Shown: positions 3,718 through 17,992 of the stretch, in pieces
Layout: each line of letters begins with the position of its first letter
Numbering within the stretch: the stretch's first letter is position 1
NCBI GenBank assembly: GCA_964631955.1
Contig: CAZWBA010000003.1
Span: 2,344-66,343, forward strand
Source: an uncultured Verrucomicrobiaceae bacterium
Lineage (GTDB): Bacteria; Pseudomonadota; Gammaproteobacteria; Pseudomonadales; CAMLJR01
Direction of reading: 5' to 3'
Length of the DNA: 64,000 bases
Program-made: the position numbers and the translations under genes
Notes under the pieces: model-generated
What the model was told of the DNA's origin: nothing
Database searches by the model: none
Seen by the model: the letters and a program-made list of their open reading frames with translations, nothing else

Positions 3718-4734
3718 ATGTTGTCCGACTTTTTTACCCAGCCACGCAATTCGCGCTTCGCTGCCTTCATCGCCGCCGCGCTGTTATTTTTCCTGCTGCT
3801 CGAACTCAAACTGCTCGTCGTCATGTACGCGGCGATGCTGGTATACGCGCTGGTCATTCTGCTCTCTTCGCATCTCATCGATCGCGGCGCGCAGGACGGC
3901 CATTCGCGCTGGTTCGCTGTGGTCTTCGTCGCCGTTCTGGTGGCATCGACACTGGTGGCAGCGGGCTTTGGGCTGCATCTGTTCCTGCGCAATGGCCTCA
4001 ACCTGCACGCGCTGCTGCTGCAGATGAGCGACATCATCGAATCCTCGCGCTCGTGGCTGCCGGAAATCATCAGCGCGAAACTGCCACAACAGGACGATCT
4101 GCTGGTGAGCGCAGGTTCGCTGCTGCGCCAGCATGCCGCAGACATCGGCACGGTCGGCCTGGGCGCGCTCAAGAATATCGGCTACACGCTGATCGGCATT
4201 CTGCTCGGTTCGATGTTCGCGATCAGCGCGCGCGTCGAGGCACACCGCCTCGGCCCGGTCAGCACCAACCTGATGGAGCAATTCATAGCGATAGAAAGCG
4301 CGTTCTGGCGGGTGCTGTCCGCGCAGGTACGCATCTCGGCGCTCAACACCGTTCTCACGGCAATCTATCTGATCGGTATTCTGCCCATGTTTGGCATCGA
4401 CCTGCCCTTCGCGAAAACGCTCATCGTCGTCACCTTCATCGCCGGGCTGCTGCCCGTCATCGGCAACCTGATTTCCAACACTGCCATCACCATTATCAGC
4501 ATCAGCCAGTCGCTACTCGTCGCCACGGCCTCGCTGACTTTCCTGATCGTGATTCACAAGCTCGAATATTTTGTAAACGCCCGCTTCGTCGGTCAGCAGA
4601 TCAACGCGAAACCGCACGAAATTCTCGTGATGATGCTGCTTATGGAAAGATTGTTCGGCCCCGCCGGCGTGGTGGCCGCGCCGGTGTTTTACGCCTGGCT
4701 GAAAGCGGAATGGCACCGCTGGGATGCGAGATAA
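3718..4734 (+). CDS. AI-2E family (PerM/UPF0118-like) membrane transporter
   Basis: Polytopic membrane ORF with the LLPVIGNLISN segment typical of AI-2E transporters. ATG at 3718; the track ORF opens earlier at 3640. Confidence 0.6.
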   Translation: MLSDFFTQPRNSRFAAFIAAALLFFLLLELKLLVVMYAAMLVYALVILLSSHLIDRGAQDGHSRWFAVVFVAVLVASTLVAAGFGLHLFLRNGLNLHALLLQMSDIIESSRSWLPEIISAKLPQQDDLLVSAGSLLRQHAADIGTVGLGALKNIGYTLIGILLGSMFAISARVEAHRLGPVSTNLMEQFIAIESAFWRVLSAQVRISALNTVLTAIYLIGILPMFGIDLPFAKTLIVVTFIAGLLPVIGNLISNTAITIISISQSLLVATASLTFLIVIHKLEYFVNARFVGQQINAKPHEILVMMLLMERLFGPAGVVAAPVFYAWLKAEWHRWDAR

Positions 4735-4749
4735 CGGGAAATACTGCGC

Positions 4750-6075
4750 TCAGCGCCAGCGCAGCCAGCACTCCTCGGGAAACGGTCCCTCCTTGTAATC
4801 CATCGCGCCGTCGGTGCGGATATCGTTGCGGCGGAAAATCTGTCGCATCATTTCGGGAATCATCACCATGCCGATGTAACGTCCCAGGCATTCGTGCGCA
4901 CCGAAACCAAAATGAAAATGGTTGTACCAGTTGCGATCCGGAATGAATTCATCGGGATTTTCGAACGCGCGCTTATCAAACATCGCCGACTGGGTCGCAA
5001 AGAAAACGTACGTGCCCGCGGGAATCGTGGTCGCGTAATCGGTACCGAGGCCGAGTGTGAAACCGCTGGCGGATTTACGAAACAGATACGGCGTGAACGG
5101 GCGGAAACGCAACGCTTCCCACACGATGCCATCGAACTCCGCCGGGTCATCCTTCTGTGCAGCCGCTTTGGCTCGCGCGCATAACTCATCGGACTTCAAT
5201 AAATATTCGACGGCCTGCCCGACCGCCTGCGCCGTGGTTTCGATCGCGCCGACCAGCAGACCGCCGATATTCACACCGAGTCGCGTGATATCGATGCCCA
5301 TCGCATCGGGAAAATTATTGCGCAGCAGCCGCGATACGATGTCGTCGCCGAGCGGCTCGTGCATCTTTCCGCGCAGGCGATTGACCACAATTCTCAGCTT
5401 GTACCACAGCGTGCGAATCACATTCGCTTTTTCAACCTTCACGGCAAGCAGACGGCGCGCCATCAGCCCGGCGATGTACATCCCCAGCTCGTTGCTCGCG
5501 CGCTTGTGCTCGCGCTCGATCCACTGCCGCTTCTTATCGTCGATCAAATCGAACGGCTGATTGTGGAAGGTGTTGTACTGCGCCCAATAGGACCAGTCGA
5601 TCAACGCTTTGCGATCGACGCCGGTGAAACCGAAATACTCCTGCACCAGCATCGCCGGCACCGCGCGGCAATAATCGTTGACGAATTCGATCCTGCCGTT
5701 TGCCTCATCGAGAAGGGTTTTGCCGAAACGTTCGATCATGCGGCGCACATCGGGCAGATCGTCGCGATTGAGCAGACTTTGCATCAGCGGCTTTTCGCGC
5801 GAATGCAGCGCGTCATCGTCGTGCGACATCAAATACAAACCGTCGAGCATCTTTGGCTTGTACAGCTCAACGGTAAATACTTTCGGCATGTTGAGCCCCT
5901 GTGTCACATCATCGAAGCGCGTGACCAGCGTGACCAGCGGCGTGACGAGAATGGGGCGGTGCTCGCGCAATTCCTTGAAGAACGGCAAAGGCTCTTCCCA
6001 CAGCCATTTATAGACGAGCGCATATTTTTCGGACTCGGGCGCGGCATCGTAACGCTCCAGATAATGGGTGCCCAT
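4750..6075 (-). CDS. Cytochrome P450
   Basis: 441 aa. Cys-ligand loop FGFGAHECLGRYIG, I-helix GAIETT, ExxR as EALR. Confidence 0.9.
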   Translation of the reverse strand: MGTHYLERYDAAPESEKYALVYKWLWEEPLPFFKELREHRPILVTPLVTLVTRFDDVTQGLNMPKVFTVELYKPKMLDGLYLMSHDDDALHSREKPLMQSLLNRDDLPDVRRMIERFGKTLLDEANGRIEFVNDYCRAVPAMLVQEYFGFTGVDRKALIDWSYWAQYNTFHNQPFDLIDDKKRQWIEREHKRASNELGMYIAGLMARRLLAVKVEKANVIRTLWYKLRIVVNRLRGKMHEPLGDDIVSRLLRNNFPDAMGIDITRLGVNIGGLLVGAIETTAQAVGQAVEYLLKSDELCARAKAAAQKDDPAEFDGIVWEALRFRPFTPYLFRKSASGFTLGLGTDYATTIPAGTYVFFATQSAMFDKRAFENPDEFIPDRNWYNHFHFGFGAHECLGRYIGMVMIPEMMRQIFRRNDIRTDGAMDYKEGPFPEECWLRWR

Positions 6076-6171
6076 CGATTCACCTCCTATCCATTTCGGT
6101 CGTTCGACCTTTCGTCGCTCAGGGATTGCGGCGCTCAGCCATCGCCCGCAATCTGTTTCGTTAGAAAAAAA

Positions 6172-8244
6172 CTACAGCGTTTTCAAATATTCGAGCAGAT
6201 CGAGCCGCGCCTCCCTGTCGAGCACGGGCAGTATGCGACCATCGGGCTGCGCGGTTCCGCCCGTCGTATATTCATGCCCTGCATTGCTGTTGCCGGGCAG
6301 ACTCGTGTCGAAGCTGAAACCTGCATAACCTTCATGACGCAAACCGACTTTATCGGGTTCGAATTCACGCGAACCGACGACGAAAGTATCGGGACGGTAT
6401 TCGCCATCCGCGGGATCGCCCGGACGTTTCTTCGGCAGCAACAAATCGTAAAGCGTCGGCACCGAACCATTGTGCAGATACGGCGCGGTGGCCCAGATAC
6501 CATTGAGCGGACGCGCCTTGTACGCAAATAACGATTTCAGTGGCTCGACACTGGTGTCGGGATCGTAAGTGCCGCCTTTCAGCGACGGTTCGATTTCGTT
6601 GGTGAAGAACGCATAAATCAGATCGTAGGCCCAGTTCACGCCGCGTCGAATCGGATTGTCGTAGGGGTACGGCGTCGCCACGGTACCCAGCGTCACTTTG
6701 GTCAACAGGGCGGCGGCGGGCGCGCGCTGATCGAGCAACAGCGAGCCCGCATCGATATCGACATATTCATTGCGCACGATGCCGCTCCAGCCGCCGTAAT
6801 ACACGCTGTTGCTCGCCATGCGCGGATCGGTGCCGATGCGTTCGAGACTCGATAATTGCGCGACTACGCGGCGATGCGGATCGTCGCGCTCCATTTCCGA
6901 GTGACACGCCAGACAATACTGGCCGAATAATTTCTCGCCGCGCCCGACGCGCGCGCGATCGATTTTCGGCAGGACATCCTCGGGCCATTGCGGCGACTGC
7001 AATTTCCACAGACGCTGCTCGAGGCGTCGCAAATTGTGCACGTTCACCGACGATTCGAAACTCACATGCGTCTTGAAACCCTGGCCCGTGATCAGCGATG
7101 AGATCGAAAAGCCCGGCTTGCGCGTCCAGTCGAGCGTGCCGAACACGCCGATCACCTCGCCCACATTTCTGCCGACCGCACCCAGCCCCGCGTTCGACGC
7201 AAGGCCGTTCCACTGCACATAATCGTGCTGCGGGATGTCCCATAAAAATGGATAGCTCACCGGCGCATTGGGCTGGTTGGCGATTTTATTTTTGAAGGCG
7301 ACGAGCTGTTCATCGGTGAGCATGCCGAAAATCTCATCGCGCTGAATACCGCTCAGCGTATTGTTTTCGTCACCGAGAATTGCGTCGAGTTTCGCCGCCG
7401 GCACCACGCCTTCCAGTTCGCGACGCAGCAGATCCGACGTCAGCACATGTTCGAGCACGCGATTGTAAATACGTCCGAATGCATCGAGCCGCGCATAACC
7501 GTACGCGGTATCGCTGGTATTGACGATGTTGTACGTGCGCAGACTCAGATTGGCGTATCTGAGTGCATCGAGCACGGCCTGCTCGTTGCGATAATTGCCG
7601 CGCGCAATCACACGCTGCACGAAGCGGTCGCGCACCGCCGCATCGTTTTGCGTGTGCAACAACGCCGCGGCGAGATCGCGGATGAACGAATCGAGATCCG
7701 CACCGCCGGGACCACCGTCGATACGCAGGCCGATGCCGTTGTAATTGATCTGCCCCGCATGACACGCCGCACAGGTCAGACCGATGTATTCGGTGCCGCG
7801 AAAAACATCCCTGACGAAGCCGACCGGCAGACCATCGGGGTTACGCTGCGTGGGATTCTGCGGCAGGTAGCGGTAGCGGTTGATGTTTTCATTATCGCGA
7901 AACAATGCCGTCGAACCGATCTGTTCGACTTCGAGAAACAGATCGTAGGGAATGAGATTGGAGCCCTGCGTAGTCGTGTAAAACCACAGCGTTTCTTCAG
8001 GCTGCCAGCCCTGATCGAGAAAACGAGTCTCGGTGAAACTATCGTTGAATATATCCTGCGTCACCGTTGCCGCGCCGCGCGTGACGTCCTTGTCGCGGAA
8101 ATCGTAATAATTTTCCTTGATGGCGATGTAGGCGAGCGGGATACCGATGATCAGCACGATGAGCCAGAAGACGGAAAAAACAACCAGCGCGCCGACGGTT
8201 TTCTCCATCGCCCACTCTTTGAATATCCGGATGAATTTACGCAT
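6172..8244 (-). CDS. Membrane-anchored di-haem cytochrome c, peroxidase/RoxA-like superfamily
   Basis: Two CXXCH motifs: CAACH at nt 7759-7773 and CLACH at nt 6901-6915. CcP/MauG-like APYLHNGSVPTLYDLL near the C-terminus. One N-terminal TM helix (VGALVVFSVFWLIVLIIGIPLAYIAI). ATG at 8244 is preceded by AAGGA; the track ORF extends to 8346. Confidence 0.7.
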   Translation of the reverse strand: MRKFIRIFKEWAMEKTVGALVVFSVFWLIVLIIGIPLAYIAIKENYYDFRDKDVTRGAATVTQDIFNDSFTETRFLDQGWQPEETLWFYTTTQGSNLIPYDLFLEVEQIGSTALFRDNENINRYRYLPQNPTQRNPDGLPVGFVRDVFRGTEYIGLTCAACHAGQINYNGIGLRIDGGPGGADLDSFIRDLAAALLHTQNDAAVRDRFVQRVIARGNYRNEQAVLDALRYANLSLRTYNIVNTSDTAYGYARLDAFGRIYNRVLEHVLTSDLLRRELEGVVPAAKLDAILGDENNTLSGIQRDEIFGMLTDEQLVAFKNKIANQPNAPVSYPFLWDIPQHDYVQWNGLASNAGLGAVGRNVGEVIGVFGTLDWTRKPGFSISSLITGQGFKTHVSFESSVNVHNLRRLEQRLWKLQSPQWPEDVLPKIDRARVGRGEKLFGQYCLACHSEMERDDPHRRVVAQLSSLERIGTDPRMASNSVYYGGWSGIVRNEYVDIDAGSLLLDQRAPAAALLTKVTLGTVATPYPYDNPIRRGVNWAYDLIYAFFTNEIEPSLKGGTYDPDTSVEPLKSLFAYKARPLNGIWATAPYLHNGSVPTLYDLLLPKKRPGDPADGEYRPDTFVVGSREFEPDKVGLRHEGYAGFSFDTSLPGNSNAGHEYTTGGTAQPDGRILPVLDREARLDLLEYLKTL

Positions 8245-8469
8245 GACAACATCCTTTTTGGATTTATTGAACTGACTGGGTTCCAGGAAAACCGAACGGG
8301 ATTCTGTTAAATCCGGTGGGGCTCGGTGAACCTGATGATTCGGCAAAAGTTTTTGAAATTCGCCAGCACTGTACCCAAAAGCATACAGCGAAAGAAGTGA
8401 TGTTTTACCACGCGCTATATTTCTTTTTTCTCAAAATTGCGTCGTCACTGGCAGTCTTTCGACTAATTA

Positions 8470-9609
8470 TCATAGTGCCAGCCGTTGCAGACAGCGACGA
8501 AAGGCCCGCAAATCATCGACGAATAATTGCGGCTGCTCCAGCGCAGCAAAATGTCCACCGCTCGGCATCTCGTTCCACTGCACGATATTGAAACTCCGCG
8601 CCACCAGACTGCGCGGCAGCGCGGCGATTTCCTTTGGAAACAAGGCAGCGGCGGTGGGTCGCGCAACGTACGCATCGGCCGGCACCGGCTCCTTGTATAA
8701 ACCGTTGTACAGCCACGTCGACGAGCCGAAGGTGTCGGTGACGAGGTAGATCATGATGTCGGTGATAATTTCATCCCGGCTGAATGTGTTCCATAAATTG
8801 CCGTCGGGCCTGTCGCTCCAGCGATGAAATTTTTCGAGAATCCAGGCCGCGATGCCGAGCGGGCTGTCGTGCATCGCATACGACAGCGTCAGCGGTTTGG
8901 TCGCCTGCAATACCATGTAACCGTTTTCGTTTTTCCAGTCATCGCGGTTGCGCTGCATCGCCGCTTTTTCTTCGGGCGTTTCCGGCCGCGCCGCACCGGC
9001 GCGCCAGAGCATCACGAAATTCAGATGCACCGCTGCGCAGCCTTCACCTTCATAGCCGAGCCAGCTTGAAATCGCCGAACCCCAATCGCCGCCCTGCGCA
9101 ATGTAATCGCGATAACCGAGCACGTCGGTCATGAGACGGTCGAATAATTTCGCCATCGTGCGCGGGCCGATCGCGGTTTTCGGCTTTGATGAAAATCCAT
9201 AACCCGGCAGCGACGGAATCACCACCGAGAATGCATCATCGCTGCGACCACCAAATTTTTCGGGATTTGTCAGCGGCTCGATCACCTTCATGAATTCGGC
9301 GAACGAACCCGGCCAGCCATGACTGAGAATCAGCGGCTTCGGATTATTCCCGGAACCGCGCACATGAATGAAATGAATAGCGTAATCGTTGATGCGCGCG
9401 ATAAATTGCGGCAGCGCGTTGAACGCGGCTTCGCGCTCGCGCCAGTCATATTTTTCGAGCCAGTAATCGACCAGCTCGCGCAGGGTTTCATGATCGGTGC
9501 CATAAGACCACGCAGCGCCCGCGGGCACATCGGGCCACGGCGCCGAACGCAGGCGCTGCGCAATCCAGTCGAGTTTCGCCTGCGGAATATCGATACGAAA
9601 TGGCTGCAT
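8470..9609 (-). CDS. Epoxide hydrolase (microsomal-type, alpha/beta hydrolase with N-terminal EH domain)
   Basis: 379 aa. N-terminal MQPFRIDIPQAKLDWIAQRL, HGWPGSF oxyanion motif, GGDWG nucleophile elbow. Confidence 0.85.
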   Translation of the reverse strand: MQPFRIDIPQAKLDWIAQRLRSAPWPDVPAGAAWSYGTDHETLRELVDYWLEKYDWREREAAFNALPQFIARINDYAIHFIHVRGSGNNPKPLILSHGWPGSFAEFMKVIEPLTNPEKFGGRSDDAFSVVIPSLPGYGFSSKPKTAIGPRTMAKLFDRLMTDVLGYRDYIAQGGDWGSAISSWLGYEGEGCAAVHLNFVMLWRAGAARPETPEEKAAMQRNRDDWKNENGYMVLQATKPLTLSYAMHDSPLGIAAWILEKFHRWSDRPDGNLWNTFSRDEIITDIMIYLVTDTFGSSTWLYNGLYKEPVPADAYVARPTAAALFPKEIAALPRSLVARSFNIVQWNEMPSGGHFAALEQPQLFVDDLRAFRRCLQRLAL

Positions 9610-9649
9610 GATCGTATGCCGTGCAATGCTTATTAAAATTCGAGCGCCA

Positions 9650-10051
9650 TTATGCCTGAGCCTTGCTCATTGCCGCCTGCATCTGCGGGATGATTCTGTC
9701 GCGTACGACGAACTGATTCATGTACTCGATGACATTGTCGATGCGCTCATCGCGAATTCGAAATAAAAACAAATGGGTATTATCGAACGGCTCGCCGGCC
9801 AGCGTTCCACGCGATGTGATTTCGGCAACGACACGATCGTCTTCCGCCGTCAGCGATACGATGTCGTACACCAGCGTGCCGGAAAAAATCGACGACAGAA
9901 TCTTCATCGCACCGTGAAAACGCGCCCTGTCCGCCGTACCCGAATTGACCGACCAGAACGTCATGTCCGGCGTCACCAGCGCATCGGGTACCTCACCCTT
10001 CGCTATCGCCAGAAAAAAATCGCGGACGAGTTGATGATTGCGTTCACGCAT
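9650..10051 (-). CDS. SnoaL-like / NTF2-fold protein
   Basis: ATG at 10051 is preceded by AAGGAG. About 133 aa with the small alpha+beta cone pattern (VRDFFLAIAKGE ... LFLFRIRDERIDNVIEYMN). The track ORF extends to 10126. Confidence 0.6.
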   Translation of the reverse strand: MRERNHQLVRDFFLAIAKGEVPDALVTPDMTFWSVNSGTADRARFHGAMKILSSIFSGTLVYDIVSLTAEDDRVVAEITSRGTLAGEPFDNTHLFLFRIRDERIDNVIEYMNQFVVRDRIIPQMQAAMSKAQA

Positions 10052-10067
10052 GGCCTGACTCCTTTTT

Positions 10068-10889
10068 TCAGCGGTTGTTTCCGGATGGCTTTTTCCGGGC
10101 AGTGGAAGATCGTTTGGCGGCGGCAACAGTTCCGGATGTTACGGATTCCTGCAATGCAGAATCGTTGATGCTGATGCCGTGAATCATGAAAGCGATGATC
10201 GCTGCATTGATGGCGTCATCGGCAGCCATGCCTTCGGCAAAAACCCAGTCCTTGAACAGCACGCAGCCGAGCAGACCCGCGAAGGAAACGCGCACCAGCA
10301 ATGCCGGATCGACCTGCGCATTCTTATCGATGCGGCTGCTCATGGTCGCGGCGCCGCGCTCGAAATAATGACCGAGCGAATCGATGGCGGCTGCACCCTG
10401 CGTCTTTCCGCCCGGTGTCTTTCCGCCCGGTGTCTTTGCACCCGGTCCTTTCACGCCCTGCAGGCTTCCCGACGTAAACAGCTGAGAGACCACCAGCGAC
10501 AGCAATAACTTGGAATGCTCATCGAGAAATTCCTGCAGCTCGGTGATGTAGACACGGACGCGCTCGTGAATATTTTCATCGTCCGGCAGCGACGCATAGC
10601 GCGTGTTGAATTCGGAAAAATGTTTATTGAGCGGCTCGAACACCGCCTCGCGAAAGAGATCGGCCTTCGAATCGAAATAGCGAAACAATTGCGCTTCCGT
10701 CACTTCCGCATTGCGCGCAATCACCGCCGTGGTGGCGCCGACGAATCCGCAGCGCTTGAACTCCTCGCGCGCCGCCGTGATCAGGCGCTCCATGATTTCT
10801 TCGGACGACCGCCGTCTGCGGGTGACGTCTGCTGTCGCCGCTCCTTTTGCTTTCATTGCGGTTTTTTTATTTTTCGGCTGTGTGGCCAT
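10068..10889 (-). CDS. TetR/AcrR family transcriptional regulator
   Basis: HTH region EEIMERLITAAREEFKRCGFVGATTAVIARNAEVTEAQLFRYFDSKADLF. ATG at 10889; the track ORF extends to 10979. First gene of the minus-strand cluster. Confidence 0.85.
   Translation of the reverse strand: MATQPKNKKTAMKAKGAATADVTRRRRSSEEIMERLITAAREEFKRCGFVGATTAVIARNAEVTEAQLFRYFDSKADLFREAVFEPLNKHFSEFNTRYASLPDDENIHERVRVYITELQEFLDEHSKLLLSLVVSQLFTSGSLQGVKGPGAKTPGGKTPGGKTQGAAAIDSLGHYFERGAATMSSRIDKNAQVDPALLVRVSFAGLLGCVLFKDWVFAEGMAADDAINAAIIAFMIHGISINDSALQESVTSGTVAAAKRSSTARKKPSGNNR
10402..10446. repeat. In-frame 15-bp x3 tandem repeat inside the TetR gene
   Basis: GTCTTTCCGCCCGGT / GTCTTTCCGCCCGGT / GTCTTTGCACCCGGT, read directly. 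Encodes the GKTPG-type reiteration in ...GPGAKTPGGKTPGGKTQGAA.... Confidence 0.9.
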
Positions 10890-10948
10890 TTCATTGAATC
10901 CCGTGATGCAGCTTCGCCGGGCAGCCCGGACGCGCTTGCCAAAGCAAT

Positions 10949-10966
10949 TGATAGCGAATACTATCA
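10949..10966. promoter_or_regulatory. Putative TetR operator palindrome
   Basis: Perfect inverted repeat TGATAG-CGAATA-CTATCA in the 140-bp divergent region between the TetR gene (start 10889) and the VOC gene (start 11030). Confidence 0.4.
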
Positions 10967-11029
10967 TTTCAACTTTCACAGCGAAAGCCGCGTCAGTTCA
11001 TCCTGATTTTTTCGGAAAGGGGATCGATC

Positions 11030-11530
11030 GTGAAAAGACCCATCAGCACCTTCAACCCTGCCGACGGTCTGCTGCGCGCGGAGCACTTTCAGGTCGCCTA
11101 CGCCACCAACGACATCGAGCGCGCCAGACACGTTTTCAGCGAACGCTTCGGCATCCGCGCCTTCCGTCAATTAAAAGGCCCGATGCCGGGCGGCGGCCAA
11201 ATCCATATCGAACTGGCATGGCACGGCAGCACGATGTACGAACTGGTGACCGCAAGTGGAGCAGGCTCAGATACATTCATGCGCTACATAGCGGGCGATG
11301 CGTTCACGATTCGCCACCATCATCTCGGATTTCTGATTCACGACGATGACGAGTGGAACGGCATGCTCGCCAGTATCGGCAAAAATGGCTGGCAAATACT
11401 TTCGCAAAGCACCAACGCCGGCTTCATGAAAACCTGCATGGTGGAAATTCCCGAACTTGGCCATTGTTTCGAATATTTACAGCCGGAGCCGGCCGGACTC
11501 GCATTTCTCGACAGCGTTCCGGTCAACTGA
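11030..11530 (+). CDS. VOC (glyoxalase/dioxygenase-fold) family protein
   Basis: 166-aa ORF from GTG. Two beta-alpha-beta-beta-beta-like halves (HFQVAYATNDIERARHVF..., HHLGFLIHDDDEW...). First gene of the plus-strand operon. Confidence 0.55.
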   Translation: MKRPISTFNPADGLLRAEHFQVAYATNDIERARHVFSERFGIRAFRQLKGPMPGGGQIHIELAWHGSTMYELVTASGAGSDTFMRYIAGDAFTIRHHHLGFLIHDDDEWNGMLASIGKNGWQILSQSTNAGFMKTCMVEIPELGHCFEYLQPEPAGLAFLDSVPVN

Positions 11531-11582
11531 CTGTTTTAAAAAATCAAATTTCGAAACCCGTTTTTGCATCGAAGGTAATCGC

Positions 11583-12776
11583 ATGAACAAACGCACCGGT
11601 ACTTTTCCTGTCGGCAATACGCTGCTCGAATATCTCGGCGATCTCGAAGGCGCCGTGAATGAATTGAAAAACACCTGGCACCCCGATGATCCCCACTACC
11701 GTGCCGATGTGTACCGCCAGGCGATGATGAGTCTTTCGTACTCGTATTTTGCGTATTTTCACTCAACACCCGAGCATCCCGACTGGGCGCCGCTGTGGAA
11801 TCCCGTATTCACACTGCAGCCCAATCCCGACGATATTTATTTATACAGCCCGCTGCGCGGCGACCTAACGTATAAAGTCAGCGGCAATCGCGGCACCGTG
11901 AAAATTCTGAGCTTCACCACGCAGCGCTTCATGTCGGGCATGGTTGACGATATTTCACAGATCGGCGGTCATAACGAAATCGACGATTCAGATATCACGT
12001 TCGATGCCAACGGTGATTTCGAAGTGATTTTCAGTGTCGAACGCCCGCCGAATCACTCCGGCAACTGGGCGCCGATTCATCCCGAAGCCACCGGCATGAT
12101 GGTACGTTTTCGCAGTTACGACTGGGAAAATGAAATCGATCCGCGCATCTCCATCGAATGCCTCGATAACGTTCCGCCGAAACCGCGCCTGTCGCCAGAA
12201 GAAATTCTCGAACGCATTCAGGAGATGGCGAAATTCCCCGCGCGTAAAACCCGCAGCTATTACCGCATGCAAAACGGCGTCAAGGAGCGTGTCGGTTTCA
12301 ATGTGTTCGAACCGATTCGCATGAAAGGCGCGCTCGCCAAACAGGTGTACTGGCCCGCATGCTTTCAGCTCGACGAGGGCGAAGCGCTAATCATCGAAAC
12401 CGAATTGCCGGAGCAACGTCCGTACTGGAATATTCAGCTCAACGATCCCTTATTCAACGCACTCGAATATGTTTACCGCTTATCGAGCCTGAATGGACAC
12501 ACCGCAAAAATCAGTTCCGATGGAAAATTCCGCGCGGTGATTTCGCTGGTCGATCCGGGCGTGCCAAACTGGCTCGACCCCGCCGGCTACAGGGAAGGTG
12601 GCATTTACGGGCGCTGGTTCGATTGCGATACCAATCCGACGCCGATCATCAGACGCGTACCGCTCGCTGAGTTGCGCAAACATTTACCCGCCGATACGCC
12701 GGTGATTACGCCCGAACAACGCGACGAGGAATTGCGTCGACGCGTGCGCGCGTGTCAGCGCCGCCGGAGGTGGTAG
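11583..12776 (+). CDS. Conserved hypothetical protein, possibly DUF1214-type; paralogue of 59975-61246
   Basis: ATG at 11583; the track ORF opens at 11457. Shares YKVSGNRGTVKILSFTTQ, EALIIE and NWLDP segments with the ORF at 59975-61246. Family name is from memory only. Confidence 0.6.
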   Translation: MNKRTGTFPVGNTLLEYLGDLEGAVNELKNTWHPDDPHYRADVYRQAMMSLSYSYFAYFHSTPEHPDWAPLWNPVFTLQPNPDDIYLYSPLRGDLTYKVSGNRGTVKILSFTTQRFMSGMVDDISQIGGHNEIDDSDITFDANGDFEVIFSVERPPNHSGNWAPIHPEATGMMVRFRSYDWENEIDPRISIECLDNVPPKPRLSPEEILERIQEMAKFPARKTRSYYRMQNGVKERVGFNVFEPIRMKGALAKQVYWPACFQLDEGEALIIETELPEQRPYWNIQLNDPLFNALEYVYRLSSLNGHTAKISSDGKFRAVISLVDPGVPNWLDPAGYREGGIYGRWFDCDTNPTPIIRRVPLAELRKHLPADTPVITPEQRDEELRRRVRACQRRRRW

Positions 12777-12778
12777 CG

Positions 12779-13579
12779 ATGAATCTCGAATTATTTAATT
12801 TCAGCGGACGCGTGGCGATTATCACCGGCGGCGGCACCGGCATCGGCGCCGTCACTGCCACGCAACTCGCACAACGCGGTGCCGATCTGGTTTTGGCGGG
12901 ACGCAAACCCGAACCGCTGGAAAATACCGCGCAAAAAATTCGCGCAGAAACGGGGCGACGCTGCATTACCGCGCCGACCGATGTAACGAATCCCGAGCAG
13001 GTGGCGAAATTAATCGAAGCGACCATCGCTGAATATGGCCGCATCGATATTCTCATCAATAACGCCGGTAAAGGCAGCCATCGTCCGCTGCGCACGATGT
13101 CGCCAGAGCTATGGCAAAAGGATGTGAATCTGAATCTAAACGCGGCGTTTTACGTTTCGCAGGCGGCCTTCCCGCATTTGAAGGAAAGCGCGCGGCAACG
13201 AAACGGACAAAGTGCGATTGTGAATATTTCGTCGCTCGCAGGAGTTAACGGCACGCTCGGAGTCGGCGCCTACTCGGCGGCGAAATCTGGATTACAAATG
13301 TTTACGCGCGTGGCCGCTGCCGAATGGGGACCGCACGGCGTGCGCGTCAATGCGGTTGCGTGCGGAATGATAGCCACCGATCTCGCGCAGGCGGGCTGGG
13401 CGAAAACCGGCTTCGATGCTGCAGGCGCAGCGCAGGTATTTCCGCTGCGGCGCCCGGGCAAACCCGAGGAAATTGCGCAGACGGTGATCTTTCTCGCCAG
13501 CGATGCCGCAGCGTACATCACCGGCGAAACCATTACCGTCGCCGGTGGCCCGCAACTCAAAGGCATGATCGATGTATGA
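12779..13579 (+). CDS. Short-chain dehydrogenase/reductase (SDR)
   Basis: TGGGTGIG cofactor motif and YSAAK catalytic motif. ATG lies 2 nt after the upstream stop. Confidence 0.9.
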   Translation: MNLELFNFSGRVAIITGGGTGIGAVTATQLAQRGADLVLAGRKPEPLENTAQKIRAETGRRCITAPTDVTNPEQVAKLIEATIAEYGRIDILINNAGKGSHRPLRTMSPELWQKDVNLNLNAAFYVSQAAFPHLKESARQRNGQSAIVNISSLAGVNGTLGVGAYSAAKSGLQMFTRVAAAEWGPHGVRVNAVACGMIATDLAQAGWAKTGFDAAGAAQVFPLRRPGKPEEIAQTVIFLASDAAAYITGETITVAGGPQLKGMIDV

Positions 13580-13600
13580 TTGACGCAGAGAACGTATTTT

Positions 13601-14833
13601 ATGGACCTGAGCTACGATCCGCCCAAGCAATTTTCTAACGCTTCAGATCAGCTGCACGAATTGGTTGCGAGAGAAGTCGGCGGCGCCTGCCTGCATAACA
13701 ACGGGTTCGGCGACAGCGACTATCTGCCCGGCCTGAAAGTGCTGCTGCAATCGATGGATTACGATCCGCATTTTACCGAGCGCGGCCGCCGCTATGCGTG
13801 GGGCGTTGTTGTCAACGTCCTGAAAGGCCGTGCGCATGCGATTAAATCGATGCGCGAAAACCCCGGCTTCGATCGTCATCCAATAAAAAATCCTGTCGTC
13901 ATTACCGGTATTCCGCGCACCGGAACCACCGCACTGCACAAGCTGATGGCAGTCGACCCTCAGTTTCAGGGTTTGCAAACGTGGCTGCTCGATTCGCCGA
14001 TGCCGCGCCCGCCGCAACATACCTGGACAAACTATCCCGCCTTTCACAAAACCGCAGCGATTCTCGAAGCGCGCTTTAAAGCGGCGCCGGTCAAACGCGC
14101 AGCACACAATATGGTCGCCGAAGAAGTCGACGAATGTTGCCTGGTACTGCGCCAGGGTTTCGTTTCGAATTTGTGGACGGTCGGCTGGTCCGCCGCCACT
14201 TACGATGCGTGGTGGCAATGTCAGAGCGAAGCCGATGCGTATCGCCATTATTATCGCTGCATGCAATTGATCGGCAGCAACGATCTCGACAAACGCTGGC
14301 TGCTTAAAAACCCGGGGCATGTCGACAATCTCGATCTGGTATTCGCGACGTTTCCCGATGCGAAGGTGATTCACACGCATCGCGATCCTGCGAAAGCCGT
14401 GCCTTCGTTGTGTTCATTACTGATGCCACTGCACCCCATCGTCGAAGAAGGCCGCTACGAACAACGCGCGCATAATATGCTCGCGCGCGAAGTCGCAAAA
14501 TGGTCGAACGCCGTGCGCAAAGCTGAAAGTGTCAAACGCGCACATCCCGGTCAATCGCTGGATATCATTCAAAGCGATTTTCACCGCGACCCGATGGCCG
14601 TGATCGAAACTATTTATCGATTTATCGGCGCGGAATTATCCGCCGATGTCAGCGCAGCCATGCAGCAGCGCATCGCTGCCGACCCCGAACGCCAGCACGG
14701 CGCACACCGCTATGACGTTGCCGATTTCGGTATGAGCGAAGATGAAATTCGCGAACGCTTCAGCGATTACATCGAACATTTCGATCTCGCACCGAAGTCT
14801 TCTGCAAATGTAAAAACGGGAGCGAAAAAATAA
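13601..14833 (+). CDS. Sulfotransferase family protein
   Basis: 5'-PSB-like loop GIPRTGTTALHKLM and a later HTHRDPAKAVPS motif. A TTG alternative at 13580 abuts the SDR stop. Confidence 0.75.
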   Translation: MDLSYDPPKQFSNASDQLHELVAREVGGACLHNNGFGDSDYLPGLKVLLQSMDYDPHFTERGRRYAWGVVVNVLKGRAHAIKSMRENPGFDRHPIKNPVVITGIPRTGTTALHKLMAVDPQFQGLQTWLLDSPMPRPPQHTWTNYPAFHKTAAILEARFKAAPVKRAAHNMVAEEVDECCLVLRQGFVSNLWTVGWSAATYDAWWQCQSEADAYRHYYRCMQLIGSNDLDKRWLLKNPGHVDNLDLVFATFPDAKVIHTHRDPAKAVPSLCSLLMPLHPIVEEGRYEQRAHNMLAREVAKWSNAVRKAESVKRAHPGQSLDIIQSDFHRDPMAVIETIYRFIGAELSADVSAAMQQRIAADPERQHGAHRYDVADFGMSEDEIRERFSDYIEHFDLAPKSSANVKTGAKK

Positions 14834-15858
14834 TGAAAGCCGCCATCTATCGCGGAGCCGGACAACCGCTTGCCATCGAAACCCTGCCCGATCCCACTCC
14901 CGGCCCCGACGATGTGGTGATCAAAGTGCATCGCTGCGGCATCTGCGGCACTGATTTGCACATGACCGAAGGCCATTCGTGGCAATTTCCACTCGGCACC
15001 GTGCCCGGTCACGAATATTCGGGCGAAATTATCGAAATCGGTTCGAACGTTTCCGGATTCAAAAAAGGCGATTTGATTACCGCATTGCCCTCAACCGGTT
15101 GCGGTCATTGCGAAGCGTGTTATCGCGGCAATCTCGCGTTGTGCCACAACGCCCCTGGACTGATGGGTGGTTACGCAGAAATGTTGCGCATTCCGATCAG
15201 CAACGCAATTAAATTGCCGGGCATATTGTCCGCCGCCGATGGTGCGCTGATCGAACCGCTCGCCGTGGCACTGTATGCAATGCGTTTGTCTCAGATAAAA
15301 CCGGGCGACCGCGTTTTGATTCTGGGCGCAGGCTCGGTCGCACTGTGCACGATTTACTGGGCAAAGCGTTTGGGCGCAGGGCGCATCGTCGCGATGTCTC
15401 GCTCGGTACGCCGCAAAGCTCTCGTGTTAGGTATGGGCGCGAATGCGTTCGTACAGTTCTCAGAAAACAAGAGCGGAGAGAACGAAAGCAAAGAAGTTAT
15501 CGAGGCGCTCGGCGGACAACCCGATATCGTGTTCGAATGCATCGGCAGTCCCGGATTTTTAACCAGAGCCATTCAGCACGTGCGCGATTTCGGTCTGGTA
15601 AGCTCGATGGGATTTTGCACCGTGCCCGATCAAATCCTTCCAGCCATCGCGGGCTGGAAAGGCGTGACACTGCAATTTCCGGTCGGTTACTCGCTCAAGG
15701 ATTTTCAGTATGTCGCCGATGTCATGAATGCAGGGCATGTCGATCCGAAAATATTGATCAGCTCGGTCATTTCACTTGACCAATTACCGCAAGTCTTCGA
15801 TCAGCTGCGCGGCCCGAATAACGAGACCAAAATACAGGTTGCCCCAGTGGCGTTATGA
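14833..15858 (+). CDS. Zinc-dependent alcohol dehydrogenase (MDR family)
   Basis: CGICGTDLH, GHEYSGEI, and the structural zinc cysteines CGHCEACYRGNLALC. The start overlaps the upstream stop (TAATG). Confidence 0.9.
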   Translation: MKAAIYRGAGQPLAIETLPDPTPGPDDVVIKVHRCGICGTDLHMTEGHSWQFPLGTVPGHEYSGEIIEIGSNVSGFKKGDLITALPSTGCGHCEACYRGNLALCHNAPGLMGGYAEMLRIPISNAIKLPGILSAADGALIEPLAVALYAMRLSQIKPGDRVLILGAGSVALCTIYWAKRLGAGRIVAMSRSVRRKALVLGMGANAFVQFSENKSGENESKEVIEALGGQPDIVFECIGSPGFLTRAIQHVRDFGLVSSMGFCTVPDQILPAIAGWKGVTLQFPVGYSLKDFQYVADVMNAGHVDPKILISSVISLDQLPQVFDQLRGPNNETKIQVAPVAL

Positions 15859-15866
15859 TGCGCAAA

Positions 15867-15893
15867 GGGCGGACACACAGATCCGCTCCTACG
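15867..15893 (-). repeat. REP-like palindromic element (copy A)
   Basis: The minus strand reads CGTAGGAGCGGATCTGTGTGTCCGCCC: a GTAG head plus a GGCGGAC/GTCCGCC-type hairpin. Intergenic between the ADH and AKR genes. Confidence 0.6.
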
Positions 15894-15912
15894 CATTTCA
15901 GGAGTAGAGAGT

Positions 15913-16872
15913 ATGGAACAGCGTAACGTTGGCAAATCGGGCCTGCGCGTATCGAACGTGGGACTCGGCTGCAATAATTTCGGCTGGCTTATCGACGCCG
16001 ATATTTCGGAAAAAATTATTCACAAGGCACTCGATCTCGGCGTCACGCTATTCGATACGGCGCCCGTTTACGGTGTGAATGGCGGCGAATCCGAACAGAT
16101 TCTCGGCAAGGCGCTCGGTGCACGGCGTCGCGATGTAACGGTGCTGACAAAATTCGGCATGACGCTCGATCGCACGGGCCGCACCAATACCTCGCGCGCA
16201 GCGTTATTGAAGGAAATCGAAGCGAGTCTTGCGCGACTCAATACCGACTACATCGATATTTACATGCTGCACTGGCCCGACTGGAAAACGCCGCTGGACG
16301 AAACCCTGCGCGCGCTCGATGACATCATCACTTCAGGTAAAGCGCGTTATATCGGCTGCTCGAATATTCCCGCGTGGCGACTCGTCGAAGCACAATGGAT
16401 TTCGAAAGCTGATCGCCTGCATAAATTCATTGTGAGCCAGAACGAGTATTCGCTGGCGCAACGCGATGCAGAGAACAGTTTATTTCCGGCCCTACAGGAA
16501 TACGGCGTCGGCTTCATGGGTTATTCACCTCTCGCCAATGGTTTATTAACGGGTAAATTCAAGGCCGGCGTCGATGCACCGAAAGATACGCGTCTCGGAA
16601 AAAATATGTGGGGCATTGGCAAGCGTTATCTCGCCGATAACATGTTGAAACTGGCCGACGATCTCAATCGCTTTGCCAGCGAACGCGACCACACGCTCAT
16701 CGAGCTGGCGATTGCGTGGCAATTATCGAATCCGCTGGTTTGCAGCGTGATCGGCGGCGCATCGAAACCCGAACAGCTGGAAATCAATGTCGCCGCCGGT
16801 AATTGCGGCTGGCGTTTGACTACAGAAGAGCAGGCGGAAGTCGATAAGATTTGTCGCGACAATCGAAAATAG
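15913..16872 (+). CDS. Aldo/keto reductase
   Basis: N-terminal RNVGKSGLRVSNVGLGCNNFG, LFDTAPVYG, YIDIYMLHWPD. Confidence 0.9.
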   Translation: MEQRNVGKSGLRVSNVGLGCNNFGWLIDADISEKIIHKALDLGVTLFDTAPVYGVNGGESEQILGKALGARRRDVTVLTKFGMTLDRTGRTNTSRAALLKEIEASLARLNTDYIDIYMLHWPDWKTPLDETLRALDDIITSGKARYIGCSNIPAWRLVEAQWISKADRLHKFIVSQNEYSLAQRDAENSLFPALQEYGVGFMGYSPLANGLLTGKFKAGVDAPKDTRLGKNMWGIGKRYLADNMLKLADDLNRFASERDHTLIELAIAWQLSNPLVCSVIGGASKPEQLEINVAAGNCGWRLTTEEQAEVDKICRDNRK

Positions 16873-16906
16873 AAATCCGATATTAAATGCCAGGAGGGAA
16901 TACACG

Positions 16907-17992
16907 ATGACCACGCGCTCGAACCCACCAGCACTTGTTGTCGGCACCGGCTTTGGCGCGCGTATTCATGCGCCTGCTTTACGCGCTGCCGGTTTTAATG
17001 TTGTCGGCTTGGTTGGTACCAATGCAGAGCGCACAGCGAAGCGCGCCGAAGCGAACGGTGTGCCGCAATCGTTTATCGATCTCGATACAGCGATTCGCAA
17101 AACCGGCGCGGTCGCCGTCACGATTGCATCGCCGCCGCAAACACATGCCGCACTCACACTCACCGCAATTGCGCACGGCTGTCATGTGATTTGCGAAAAG
17201 CCGATGGCTAACAATATCGATGAGGCGCGCGCGATGCTACAGGCCGCCGAACGCGCGGGCATCACCCATTTAATGGGCAATCAGTTTCGCTGGCAGCCCG
17301 AGCGCGCCATTGTTGCGCGCGCAATCAAACAGGGCTTGATCGGCGAACCGCGCTTTATCACGCTGGCAGGTTACCTGCCGCTGGTCGCAGCGCCCGAAGC
17401 AACGATGCCCGACTGGTGGTTCGACGAAGGCGCGGGAGGCGGCTGGCTCGGCGCGCACGGCTCGCATCTCATCGATCAGGTACGCAGCTGGCTCGGCGAA
17501 TTCGCCAGCCTGAGCGCAGCATTGCCGATGGTTTCGGCGCGCACAGGCGTTGCTGAAGACAGTTATCTGATTCGCTTTCGGCTCGCCAGTGGTGTTGAAG
17601 GCGTGCTGCAAAATACCGCAGGTGCATGGGGACCGGTAACCGATTTCGTGCGCGTCGCCGGAACGCTGGGAACGATCTGGAGCGAAAAAGGCATTGTGTA
17701 TATCGCCGATCGCGACGGTACGCGCGAATTGCCAATTCCCGCCGATTTACTATTGCCGCCCGCGACAGGCGATAAAAATGATCCGCGCGCAGCGGTGCGA
17801 GAACCCGGACCGTATATTCGTTTATGCGAAGTATTGCGCGCCGGTGTCGATGGCCGCGCCTATATCGATGGTCGCGACGCTATTAGCGCAGTACCGCCGC
17901 CGACATTCCACGATGGTCTCGCGTGCATGCAGGTCATGGATGCAATCCGCGACTCCGCTGCCAATGATGGTGCGATTAAAAATCTTGCCTGA
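16907..17992 (+). CDS. Gfo/Idh/MocA family oxidoreductase
   Basis: N-terminal Rossmann segment VVGTGFGARIHAPALRAAGFNVVGLVG and the CEKPMA motif. Confidence 0.85.
   Translation: MTTRSNPPALVVGTGFGARIHAPALRAAGFNVVGLVGTNAERTAKRAEANGVPQSFIDLDTAIRKTGAVAVTIASPPQTHAALTLTAIAHGCHVICEKPMANNIDEARAMLQAAERAGITHLMGNQFRWQPERAIVARAIKQGLIGEPRFITLAGYLPLVAAPEATMPDWWFDEGAGGGWLGAHGSHLIDQVRSWLGEFASLSAALPMVSARTGVAEDSYLIRFRLASGVEGVLQNTAGAWGPVTDFVRVAGTLGTIWSEKGIVYIADRDGTRELPIPADLLLPPATGDKNDPRAAVREPGPYIRLCEVLRAGVDGRAYIDGRDAISAVPPPTFHDGLACMQVMDAIRDSAANDGAIKNLA

Follow-up and report, generated by a model that had tools for sequence, protein, structure and literature searches.

A widespread two-gene unit encoding a RoxA-superfamily di-haem cytochrome c and a cytochrome P450, and its probable juxtaposition with a separate TetR-headed gene unit in an uncultured bacterium

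Background

All large monomeric di-haem enzymes of the RoxA type characterised so far are oxygenases or hydroperoxide isomerases that act on olefinic lipids (PMC6311187, PMC4496055). The production of RoxA-type proteins in E. coli is reported to fail (PMC6311187). The rubber oxygenases RoxA and RoxB (Steroidobacter cummioxidans 35Y; PDB 4B2N) are marked by two CxxCH haem motifs, a MauG motif of the form PY[FLM]HNGSVP and a distal histidine for the C-terminal haem (PMC6311187), while PA2077/PA2078 of Pseudomonas aeruginosa encode a 10S-dioxygenase and a 7,10-diol synthase of the FadCcp subfamily (PMC4496055). In this paper we examine a gene for a RoxA-superfamily di-haem cytochrome c and the cytochrome P450 gene downstream of it, which close a row of five minus-strand genes at positions 4750-10889 of a 64,000-nucleotide stretch from an uncultured bacterium (contig CAZWBA010000003.1 of assembly GCA_964631955.1), hereafter called the window. 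In the direction of transcription the row encodes a TetR-family regulator, a SnoaL-like protein, an epoxide hydrolase (EH), the di-haem protein and the P450, and a sequence-only reading had taken all five for one candidate pathway. We conclude that the interval probably consists of two juxtaposed units and not of one pathway. Unit A (4750-8244, probably together with the 225 bp upstream of it) would be a widely conserved two-gene operon in which the di-haem gene precedes the P450 gene, and Unit B (8470-10966) would be a lineage-specific unit of the TetR, SnoaL-like and EH genes, with a palindromic candidate operator in a promoter region that it shares with a divergent gene cluster.

The di-haem protein of the window resembles RoxA and RoxB in being a large (~70 kDa) di-haem c-type cytochrome predicted to lie outside the cytoplasm, and in carrying two CxxCH motifs, a MauG motif and a C-terminal GNxNxGH in the same order, PYLHNGSVP being the RoxB form of the MauG motif. 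It differs from them in that only about 35 residues can be aligned with confidence, in its predicted membrane anchoring or lipidation and in its pairing with a P450; moreover, di-haem proteins of the window type are found also in nitrifying autotrophs without rubber degradation. PA2077/PA2078, compared here by description, likewise form a two-gene operon, whose products are periplasmic, RoxA-related di-haem enzymes of ~65 kDa, the second transforming the product of the first, whereas the second gene in the window encodes a P450 predicted to be cytoplasmic and not a paralogous di-haem protein.

The closest conceptual analogue is found in the fungal linoleate diol synthases (Ppo), where a haem dioxygenase and a P450 form one genetic unit. 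The fungal dioxygenase domain is, however, of the animal-peroxidase type and not a c-type di-haem protein, and the fungal P450 domains are hydroperoxide isomerases that need neither oxygen nor a reductase, whereas the P450 of the window keeps Glu279-Thr280 and the two proteins of the window are separate and predicted to reside in different compartments. Classical CcP/MauG proteins (PF03150) share with the window protein two c-type haems, a periplasmic location and a MauG-type motif, but the window protein is about twice as large and, in the region of the second haem, aligns with RoxA-type enzymes and not with CcP.

Results and discussion

Conservation of the gene pair

All five minus-strand open reading frames (ORFs) were found in the interval in the order given above, and Pfam and NCBIfam confirm the family that had been proposed for each. 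With gene starts set by ortholog alignments, the gaps along the row amount to 16 bp (TetR to SnoaL-like), 40 bp (SnoaL-like to EH), 225 bp (EH to di-haem) and 96 bp (di-haem to P450), which reproduces the 16, 40, ~225 and 96 bp read earlier. The last two genes, a di-haem gene of 690 codons (8244..6172, minus strand) and a P450 gene of 441 codons (6075..4750, minus strand), are the first and second members of the two-gene unit.

With one genome scanned for each GTDB species, at least 545 di-haem loci were found, the best 80 of which were analysed; 72 of the 80 are informative in that 1400 bp or more of sequence follow the di-haem gene. A P450 ortholog (56-74% identity) lies directly downstream and on the same strand in 48 of these 72 loci, at a distance of 17-285 bp (median 55 bp). 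By gene-call look-ups, the succession of di-haem and P450 genes was seen in 10 different contexts. The linked pair is present in Nitrosomonadaceae, Methylococcaceae, Rhodocyclaceae, Uliginosibacterium and Acidobacteriota with otherwise unrelated flanks, and its cultured carriers include Nitrosomonas ureae, N. oligotropha, Nitrosospira spp., Nitrosovibrio tenuis and Uliginosibacterium sediminicola. When the neighbours at 18 diverse loci were compared all against all, the di-haem and P450 genes were the only ones shared; no third conserved gene was found around the pair in this set, the other shared ORFs being shadow frames of the two genes. The pairing of the di-haem protein with a P450, as the sequence-only reading had it, is thus upheld, and since the adjacency is conserved across phyla, the two proteins are functionally linked.

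Di-haem loci without a P450 gene belong mainly to one Nitrosomonadaceae paralogue clade that is nested inside the linked family. This Nitrosomonas paralogue has a conserved context of its own (L056, L061, L073, L080, L086 and L088, at ~4200-12000 in each), with a divergent pair of efflux genes for an outer-membrane factor and a membrane-fusion protein on one side and a conserved gene of ~120-130 aa (LILGVTPEGRPFRPSDWAERLCG...) plus a gene of 360-400 aa on the other. Tandem di-haem genes of the FadCcp kind are absent from the window and occur only at two loci of Nitrosomonadales (L016 354-6025, L017 4688-10345), where two tandem di-haem paralogues are followed by the P450 gene in an arrangement that recalls PA2077/PA2078. 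In the clade with 64-69% di-haem identity, a very conserved ORF of 72 aa (MDxGNxDK..PVDPETILFTLDQLGQTVxVMNKVIxRLRGYVMQNMAAQRQSEFDF..GKIGPSGLH) without a Pfam match is located on the same strand 300-3500 bp upstream of the di-haem gene (L001 6260-6478, L003 4161-4379, L172 8474-8692 and a JGI contig), followed in L001 and L003 by a DUF2442 gene; it has no counterpart in the window.

The di-haem protein

The di-haem protein matches the NCBIfam model NF040606 over profile positions 1-524 of 524 with 581.5 bits (cutoff 150), and its sole Pfam match above threshold is PF21419 (RoxA-like_Cyt-c), a domain of 35 residues, with 72 bits. An exact-sequence look-up of the protein returned no gene record; the wider di-haem family comprises 1195 clusters at 50% identity with E <=1e-30. 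The protein displays the motif set of RoxA and RoxB, namely CAACH162, CLACH448, the MauG motif PYLH591NGSVP and GNSNAGH657, the last of which aligns with GNDNGGH of 4b2n, and haem ligation by these motifs is predicted. Three segments are collinear with RoxA (4b2n), the only solved relative by sequence: one at the first haem motif, one at the MauG motif and one at the C-terminal end GNxNxGH..LxEYxKxL. A profile search of the PDB gave only weak collinear RoxA segments and a marginal match to the di-haem enzyme 6e1c. The two haem motifs are 286 residues apart, as against 199 in RoxA, the spacing of 235-245 residues in PA2077/PA2078 lying in between.

The name that NCBIfam gives to NF040606, 'di-heme-cytochrome C peroxidase', could be taken to favour a different role, in which a membrane-bound di-haem peroxidase or oxidase would deal with peroxides, or would oxidise and polymerise in the periplasm a phenolic or otherwise activated product that the P450 makes or consumes, with an aromatic or xenobiotic substrate in place of an olefinic lipid. 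A locus of Methylovulum psychrotolerans (CP022129.1; L175 8001-11146) can be cited to the same effect: a P450 ortholog of 61% identity is followed there, 120 bp downstream, by a gene for a three-domain, periplasmic-type multicopper oxidase, and no di-haem gene lies within 8 kb. This replacement of the di-haem gene hints at interchangeable periplasmic oxidases. It concerns a single locus, however, and the name of the family stems from annotation. PF03150 (CCP_MauG), the family of classical peroxidases, does not match the di-haem protein, other cytochrome c matches stay below threshold, and in its C-terminal haem region the protein aligns with the bis-His RoxA type, so that we regard this peroxidase or oxidase role as unlikely. 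The absence of a PF03150 match, together with the RoxA/RoxB MauG motif and the C-terminal His region, also agrees with the earlier view that the protein is not an ordinary periplasmic peroxidase.

The di-haem gene starts with an ATG (MRKF), as in P0002 and P0005, and in the encoded N-terminus basic residues precede a long hydrophobic helix, in which no small-x-small site, as expected of the cleavable Sec signal of the secreted RoxA type, was recognised by eye. In about 10 of 46 orthologs the helix is replaced by a lipobox (LSAC, LPAC or ISGC), which indicates that extracytoplasmic membrane tethering is conserved in two forms. The di-haem protein is accordingly predicted from its N-terminus to be membrane-anchored with a periplasmic body (about residues 50-690), and not to be secreted.

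The cytochrome P450

The P450 is recognised by PF00067 with 50.3 bits (cutoff 22.8). Alignments of 17 and of 33 orthologs show no variation in its I-helix motif GGLLxGAIETT, in WEALRF as the ExxR motif or in the Cys loop FHFGFGxHxCLG; in the window protein the ExxR motif is E320-A-L-R323 and the Cys loop, FGFGAHECLG, is of canonical length, while G276-A-I-E279-T280-T281 is invariant in the 33 orthologs. The protein has no signal peptide and is predicted to be cytoplasmic. An AlphaFold2 (AF2) model (pLDDT 82) retrieved many P450s with Foldseek (TM 0.65-0.72, E ~1e-14, <=22% identity), and these structural neighbours are generic class-I bacterial P450s (CYP116, CYP125, CYP153 and CYP199). Orthologs are ~60% identical across Proteobacteria and Acidobacteriota. 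At a locus of Methylomonas paludis (L011 6068-7933) a P450 ortholog of 63% identity is partnered by a divergent di-haem protein of 621 aa, which is ~31% identical to that of the window and matches NF040606 with 442 bits; the retention of the P450 beside a far more divergent partner suggests that the P450 is the more constrained of the two.

That no redox partner is encoded nearby, as noted in the sequence-only reading, is consistent with a pattern search, in itself a weak test, which detected a ferredoxin-type Cys pattern in no ORF of the 64-kb window. A P450 of the reductase-independent type would have been the neatest account of the missing partner, but the residues of the protein argue against it. 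In CYP74, CYP8A and the P450 domains of fungal diol synthases, the acid-alcohol pair of the I-helix is lost or replaced, typically by Asn, and CYP74 in addition has an insertion in the Cys loop. We therefore rejected a hydroperoxide-transforming, reductase-independent P450 on the grounds of the invariant Glu-Thr pair and the canonical Cys loop, and likewise a CYP152 peroxygenase, whose model NF053744 gave 16.6 bits against a cutoff of 600. The retained Glu-Thr pair points to an ordinary O2-activating monooxygenase with a redox partner encoded elsewhere, and the conserved residues thus argue for a predicted monooxygenase of this kind and not for a partner-independent hydroperoxide-transforming or epoxide-forming enzyme. 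The lack of a nearby reductase gene does not point to a partner-independent P450.

The same residues bear on the notion that the pair acts on small intermediates of nitrogen or C1 oxidation, such as NO or hydroxylamine, with the P450 as a P450nor-like reductase. Such a role would fit a pair that is abundant in methanotrophs and ammonia oxidisers: most of the best 80 genome loci come from Nitrosomonadaceae, whose genomes often encode two di-haem paralogues, a majority that may partly reflect which genomes score best, and the pair is also found in Methylococcaceae. Yet it is present equally in Spongiibacteraceae, Rhodocyclaceae, Uliginosibacterium and Acidobacteriota, the P450 keeps the Glu-Thr pair of monooxygenases, and its structural neighbours are generic class-I P450s; we hold this explanation to be very improbable.

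The TetR, SnoaL-like and epoxide hydrolase genes

Among the best 80 di-haem loci, homologues of the TetR, SnoaL-like and EH genes were found only in a metagenome-assembled genome (MAG) of Spongiibacteraceae, 5N210 (L010/L014), which has the full row upstream of a di-haem gene of 90% identity and a downstream P450 gene. The flanks of this locus, with AsnRS, an AI-2E transporter, VOC, DUF1214, SDR and sulfotransferase genes, are shared with the window as well, and the row of the MAG hence represents whole-region synteny between close relatives and carries little information on a linkage of the five genes. At 86% di-haem identity (L174) the P450 gene is still downstream, but the neighbouring genes encode a Fic protein and a subunit of a type I restriction system, and at loci with 69-56% identity (L001, L003, L005, L007, L008, L172 and the JGI contig) the P450 gene remains while all other genes differ. 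A gene of 378 aa at the end of L174 was considered as an EH and rejected, since it encodes a Fic-domain protein. Synteny of the five-gene row is found in the MAG, and it is gone at 86% and at <=69% di-haem identity. Conversely, of 80 metagenomic loci with an EH homologue (47-83% EH identity), not one has a TetR, SnoaL, di-haem or P450 homologue within 6 kb.

The EH gene (9609..8470, minus strand, 379 aa) encodes an EHN domain (PF06441, 123 bits) and an alpha/beta hydrolase domain (PF00561 Abhydrolase_1, 49 bits), and its translation carries the motifs HGWPG, GGDWG and GGHFAA. These features, with HGxP as oxyanion motif, GGDWG as nucleophile elbow and a histidine in the C-terminal GGHF, agree with those of microsomal-type enzymes, and the protein is accordingly a predicted microsomal-type epoxide hydrolase. 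The SnoaL-like gene (10051..9650, minus strand, 133 aa), which encodes a SnoaL_2 or NTF2-fold protein (PF12680, 36 bits, cutoff 27), starts 16 bp past the TetR stop codon with an ATG preceded by AAGGAG, and an ortholog was found in L010/L014 only.

The intergenic region of 225 bp (8245..8469, minus strand) 5' of the di-haem gene contains two islands, ATTTTGAGAAAAAAGAAATATAG and ACTTCTTTC..TTTTGGnTACAGTGC, that are conserved with L010. The second of these is also kept in L174, which has an unrelated HsdR gene at this place, and the persistence of the island without the EH gene indicates that the element belongs to the di-haem gene and not to the EH gene. The region thus probably holds the di-haem gene's own promoter or regulatory region. 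Scans for consensus promoters and terminators performed no better than on shuffled sequences and were not used.

At the head of the row, the TetR gene (10889..10068, minus strand, 273 aa) encodes a TetR_N helix-turn-helix domain (PF00440, 42 bits), and in agreement with the sequence-only reading a perfect 6-N6-6 palindrome, TGATAG-N6-CTATCA, was located in the divergent promoter region at 10949..10966 (no strand assigned), between the TetR gene and a VOC/glyoxalase-like gene that starts at 11030. It lies 60 bp upstream of the TetR ATG and occurs once in the window, with a match in 0 of 100 shuffles. Even with mismatches allowed, no second copy was found in the window, the region upstream of the di-haem gene included. 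L010 has the same 20-bp palindrome core, ATGATAGTATTCGCTATCAA, within intergenic DNA that has otherwise diverged, which is the pattern expected of an operator; together with the helix-turn-helix domain, an inverted repeat in a divergent promoter is characteristic of the TetR family, and we regard the palindrome as a candidate operator for TetR. The TetR proteins of the window and of L010 are 65% identical. A 15-bp tandem repeat (3.8 copies, consensus GTCTTTCCGCCCGGT) at 10402-10458 within the TetR gene encodes GAKTPGGKTPGGKTQG in the ligand-binding half of the protein, and the TetR of the MAG lacks the 15 repeat-encoded residues.

The palindrome region is shared with seven co-oriented genes at 11030-17992 (plus strand), divergent from TetR, for a VOC/glyoxalase-like protein, a DUF1214 protein, an SDR, a sulfotransferase, a Zn-dependent alcohol dehydrogenase (ADH), an aldo-keto reductase (AKR) and a GFO/IDH/MocA oxidoreductase. 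The MAG of Spongiibacteraceae shares this row in synteny at least up to the gene for the aldo-keto reductase, at which the locus of the MAG ends. The main regulon of TetR may comprise the divergent row together with the SnoaL-like and EH genes, rather than the di-haem/P450 pair. The absence of Unit B from related loci, the retention of the island upstream of the di-haem gene without the EH gene and the single copy of the operator speak for a separate unit, and Unit B is more likely part of this oxidoreductase-rich divergent island than of Unit A.

The alternative, a single TetR-controlled operon in which the di-haem enzyme oxygenates an unsaturated lipid or polyene, the P450 epoxidises it and the EH forms a diol, with the NTF2-fold protein as a helper, has several points in its favour: the five genes are co-oriented with short gaps, the EH retains its catalytic motifs, the gene order is kept in the MAG 5N210, and an NCBI contig of 7250 bp encodes closely related EH, di-haem and P450 proteins. 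Relatives with the row, however, share the whole region down to its housekeeping flanks, and the row is lost at 86% di-haem identity and at every more distant locus as well as in the entire set of EH-homologue loci. Moreover, the conserved element in the 225-bp gap tracks the di-haem gene and has no operator copy beside it, and the di-haem enzyme is predicted to be periplasmic while the EH, the SnoaL-like protein and the P450 lack export signals. A joint operon of this kind is improbable in our view. The claim that the five genes form one conserved pathway is largely not supported, in that the TetR, SnoaL-like and EH genes accompany the pair only in very close relatives.

Possible function of the gene pair

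The explanation that we consider best as a whole, with a probability of about 0.6, is that Unit A and Unit B are juxtaposed and that the pair of Unit A oxidises a lipophilic substrate. Since all characterised large RoxA-type enzymes act on olefinic lipids, the di-haem enzyme probably oxygenates a lipophilic substrate, and by analogy with these relatives the pair as such most likely does so. The di-haem protein would be situated on the periplasmic face of the inner membrane, held by an uncleaved N-terminal helix or, in other lineages, by a lipoprotein anchor, and a single lipophilic substrate that partitions into membranes, or the intermediates formed from it in succession, would be oxidised by both haem enzymes, an olefinic lipid or isoprenoid being the likeliest candidate. 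On the periplasmic side, the di-haem enzyme might use O2 to oxygenate a C=C bond or an allylic position, like RoxA, RoxB and 10S-DOX, whereas on the cytoplasmic side the P450 might be a monooxygenase that hydroxylates or epoxidises the substrate or the product of the di-haem enzyme, served by a ferredoxin system encoded elsewhere. The strong conservation of the pair and its presence in obligate autotrophs suggest an endogenous lipid or a common environmental lipophile, and not a polymeric growth substrate.

Several observations weigh against this explanation. The oxygenase role is inferred by extrapolation from relatives that share ~35 clearly alignable residues and a motif architecture. By its profile scores the di-haem protein belongs to NF040606 and is placed outside the RoxA, RoxB and RoxC families, whose NCBIfam models gave 45.4, 56.6 and 52.9 bits against cutoffs of 900-1000, all of it from the 35-residue stretch around the MauG motif, and a Foldseek search of the PDB with its AF2 model (pLDDT 75) returned no match, RoxA included. 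A direct coupling of the two enzymes is not obvious, given that they are predicted to reside in different compartments. Nor is the linkage universal: five scattered di-haem loci outside the paralogue clade are without a P450 gene, and the P450 ortholog of Methylovulum psychrotolerans is without a nearby di-haem gene. Finally, the adjacency of the EH, di-haem and P450 genes persists in at least three close relatives, so that a local functional link may exist.

Conclusions

The di-haem/P450 pair is a widespread and so far uncharacterised two-gene unit. Our literature search found no publication on a di-haem/P450 operon or pair, and no assigned role for the P450s of obligate chemolithoautotrophic ammonia oxidisers. 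To our knowledge, RoxA-type di-haem enzymes are known from two chemistries only, the cleavage of rubber and the synthesis of diols from oleate, and the wider di-haem family is large yet annotated merely as 'peroxidase'. A concrete two-gene target for finding a new function is offered by a subfamily tied this closely to a highly conserved P450 (~60% identity across phyla). As regards annotation, the locus serves as a warning that the five-gene row should not be read as a single pathway.

More tentatively, the pair could constitute a widespread and hitherto unnoticed bacterial module of lipid oxidation, in which a membrane-tethered dioxygenase of the RoxA type would cooperate with a P450 in making or remodelling an oxidised lipid or isoprenoid; we think this rather doubtful. 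If true, its products might be, for example, an oxylipin-like signal or a modified membrane lipid. The module, present in nitrifiers, methanotrophs and Acidobacteria as well as in marine Gammaproteobacteria, would then be the bacterial equivalent of the fungal fusions of a dioxygenase with a P450, but split into two proteins in two compartments.

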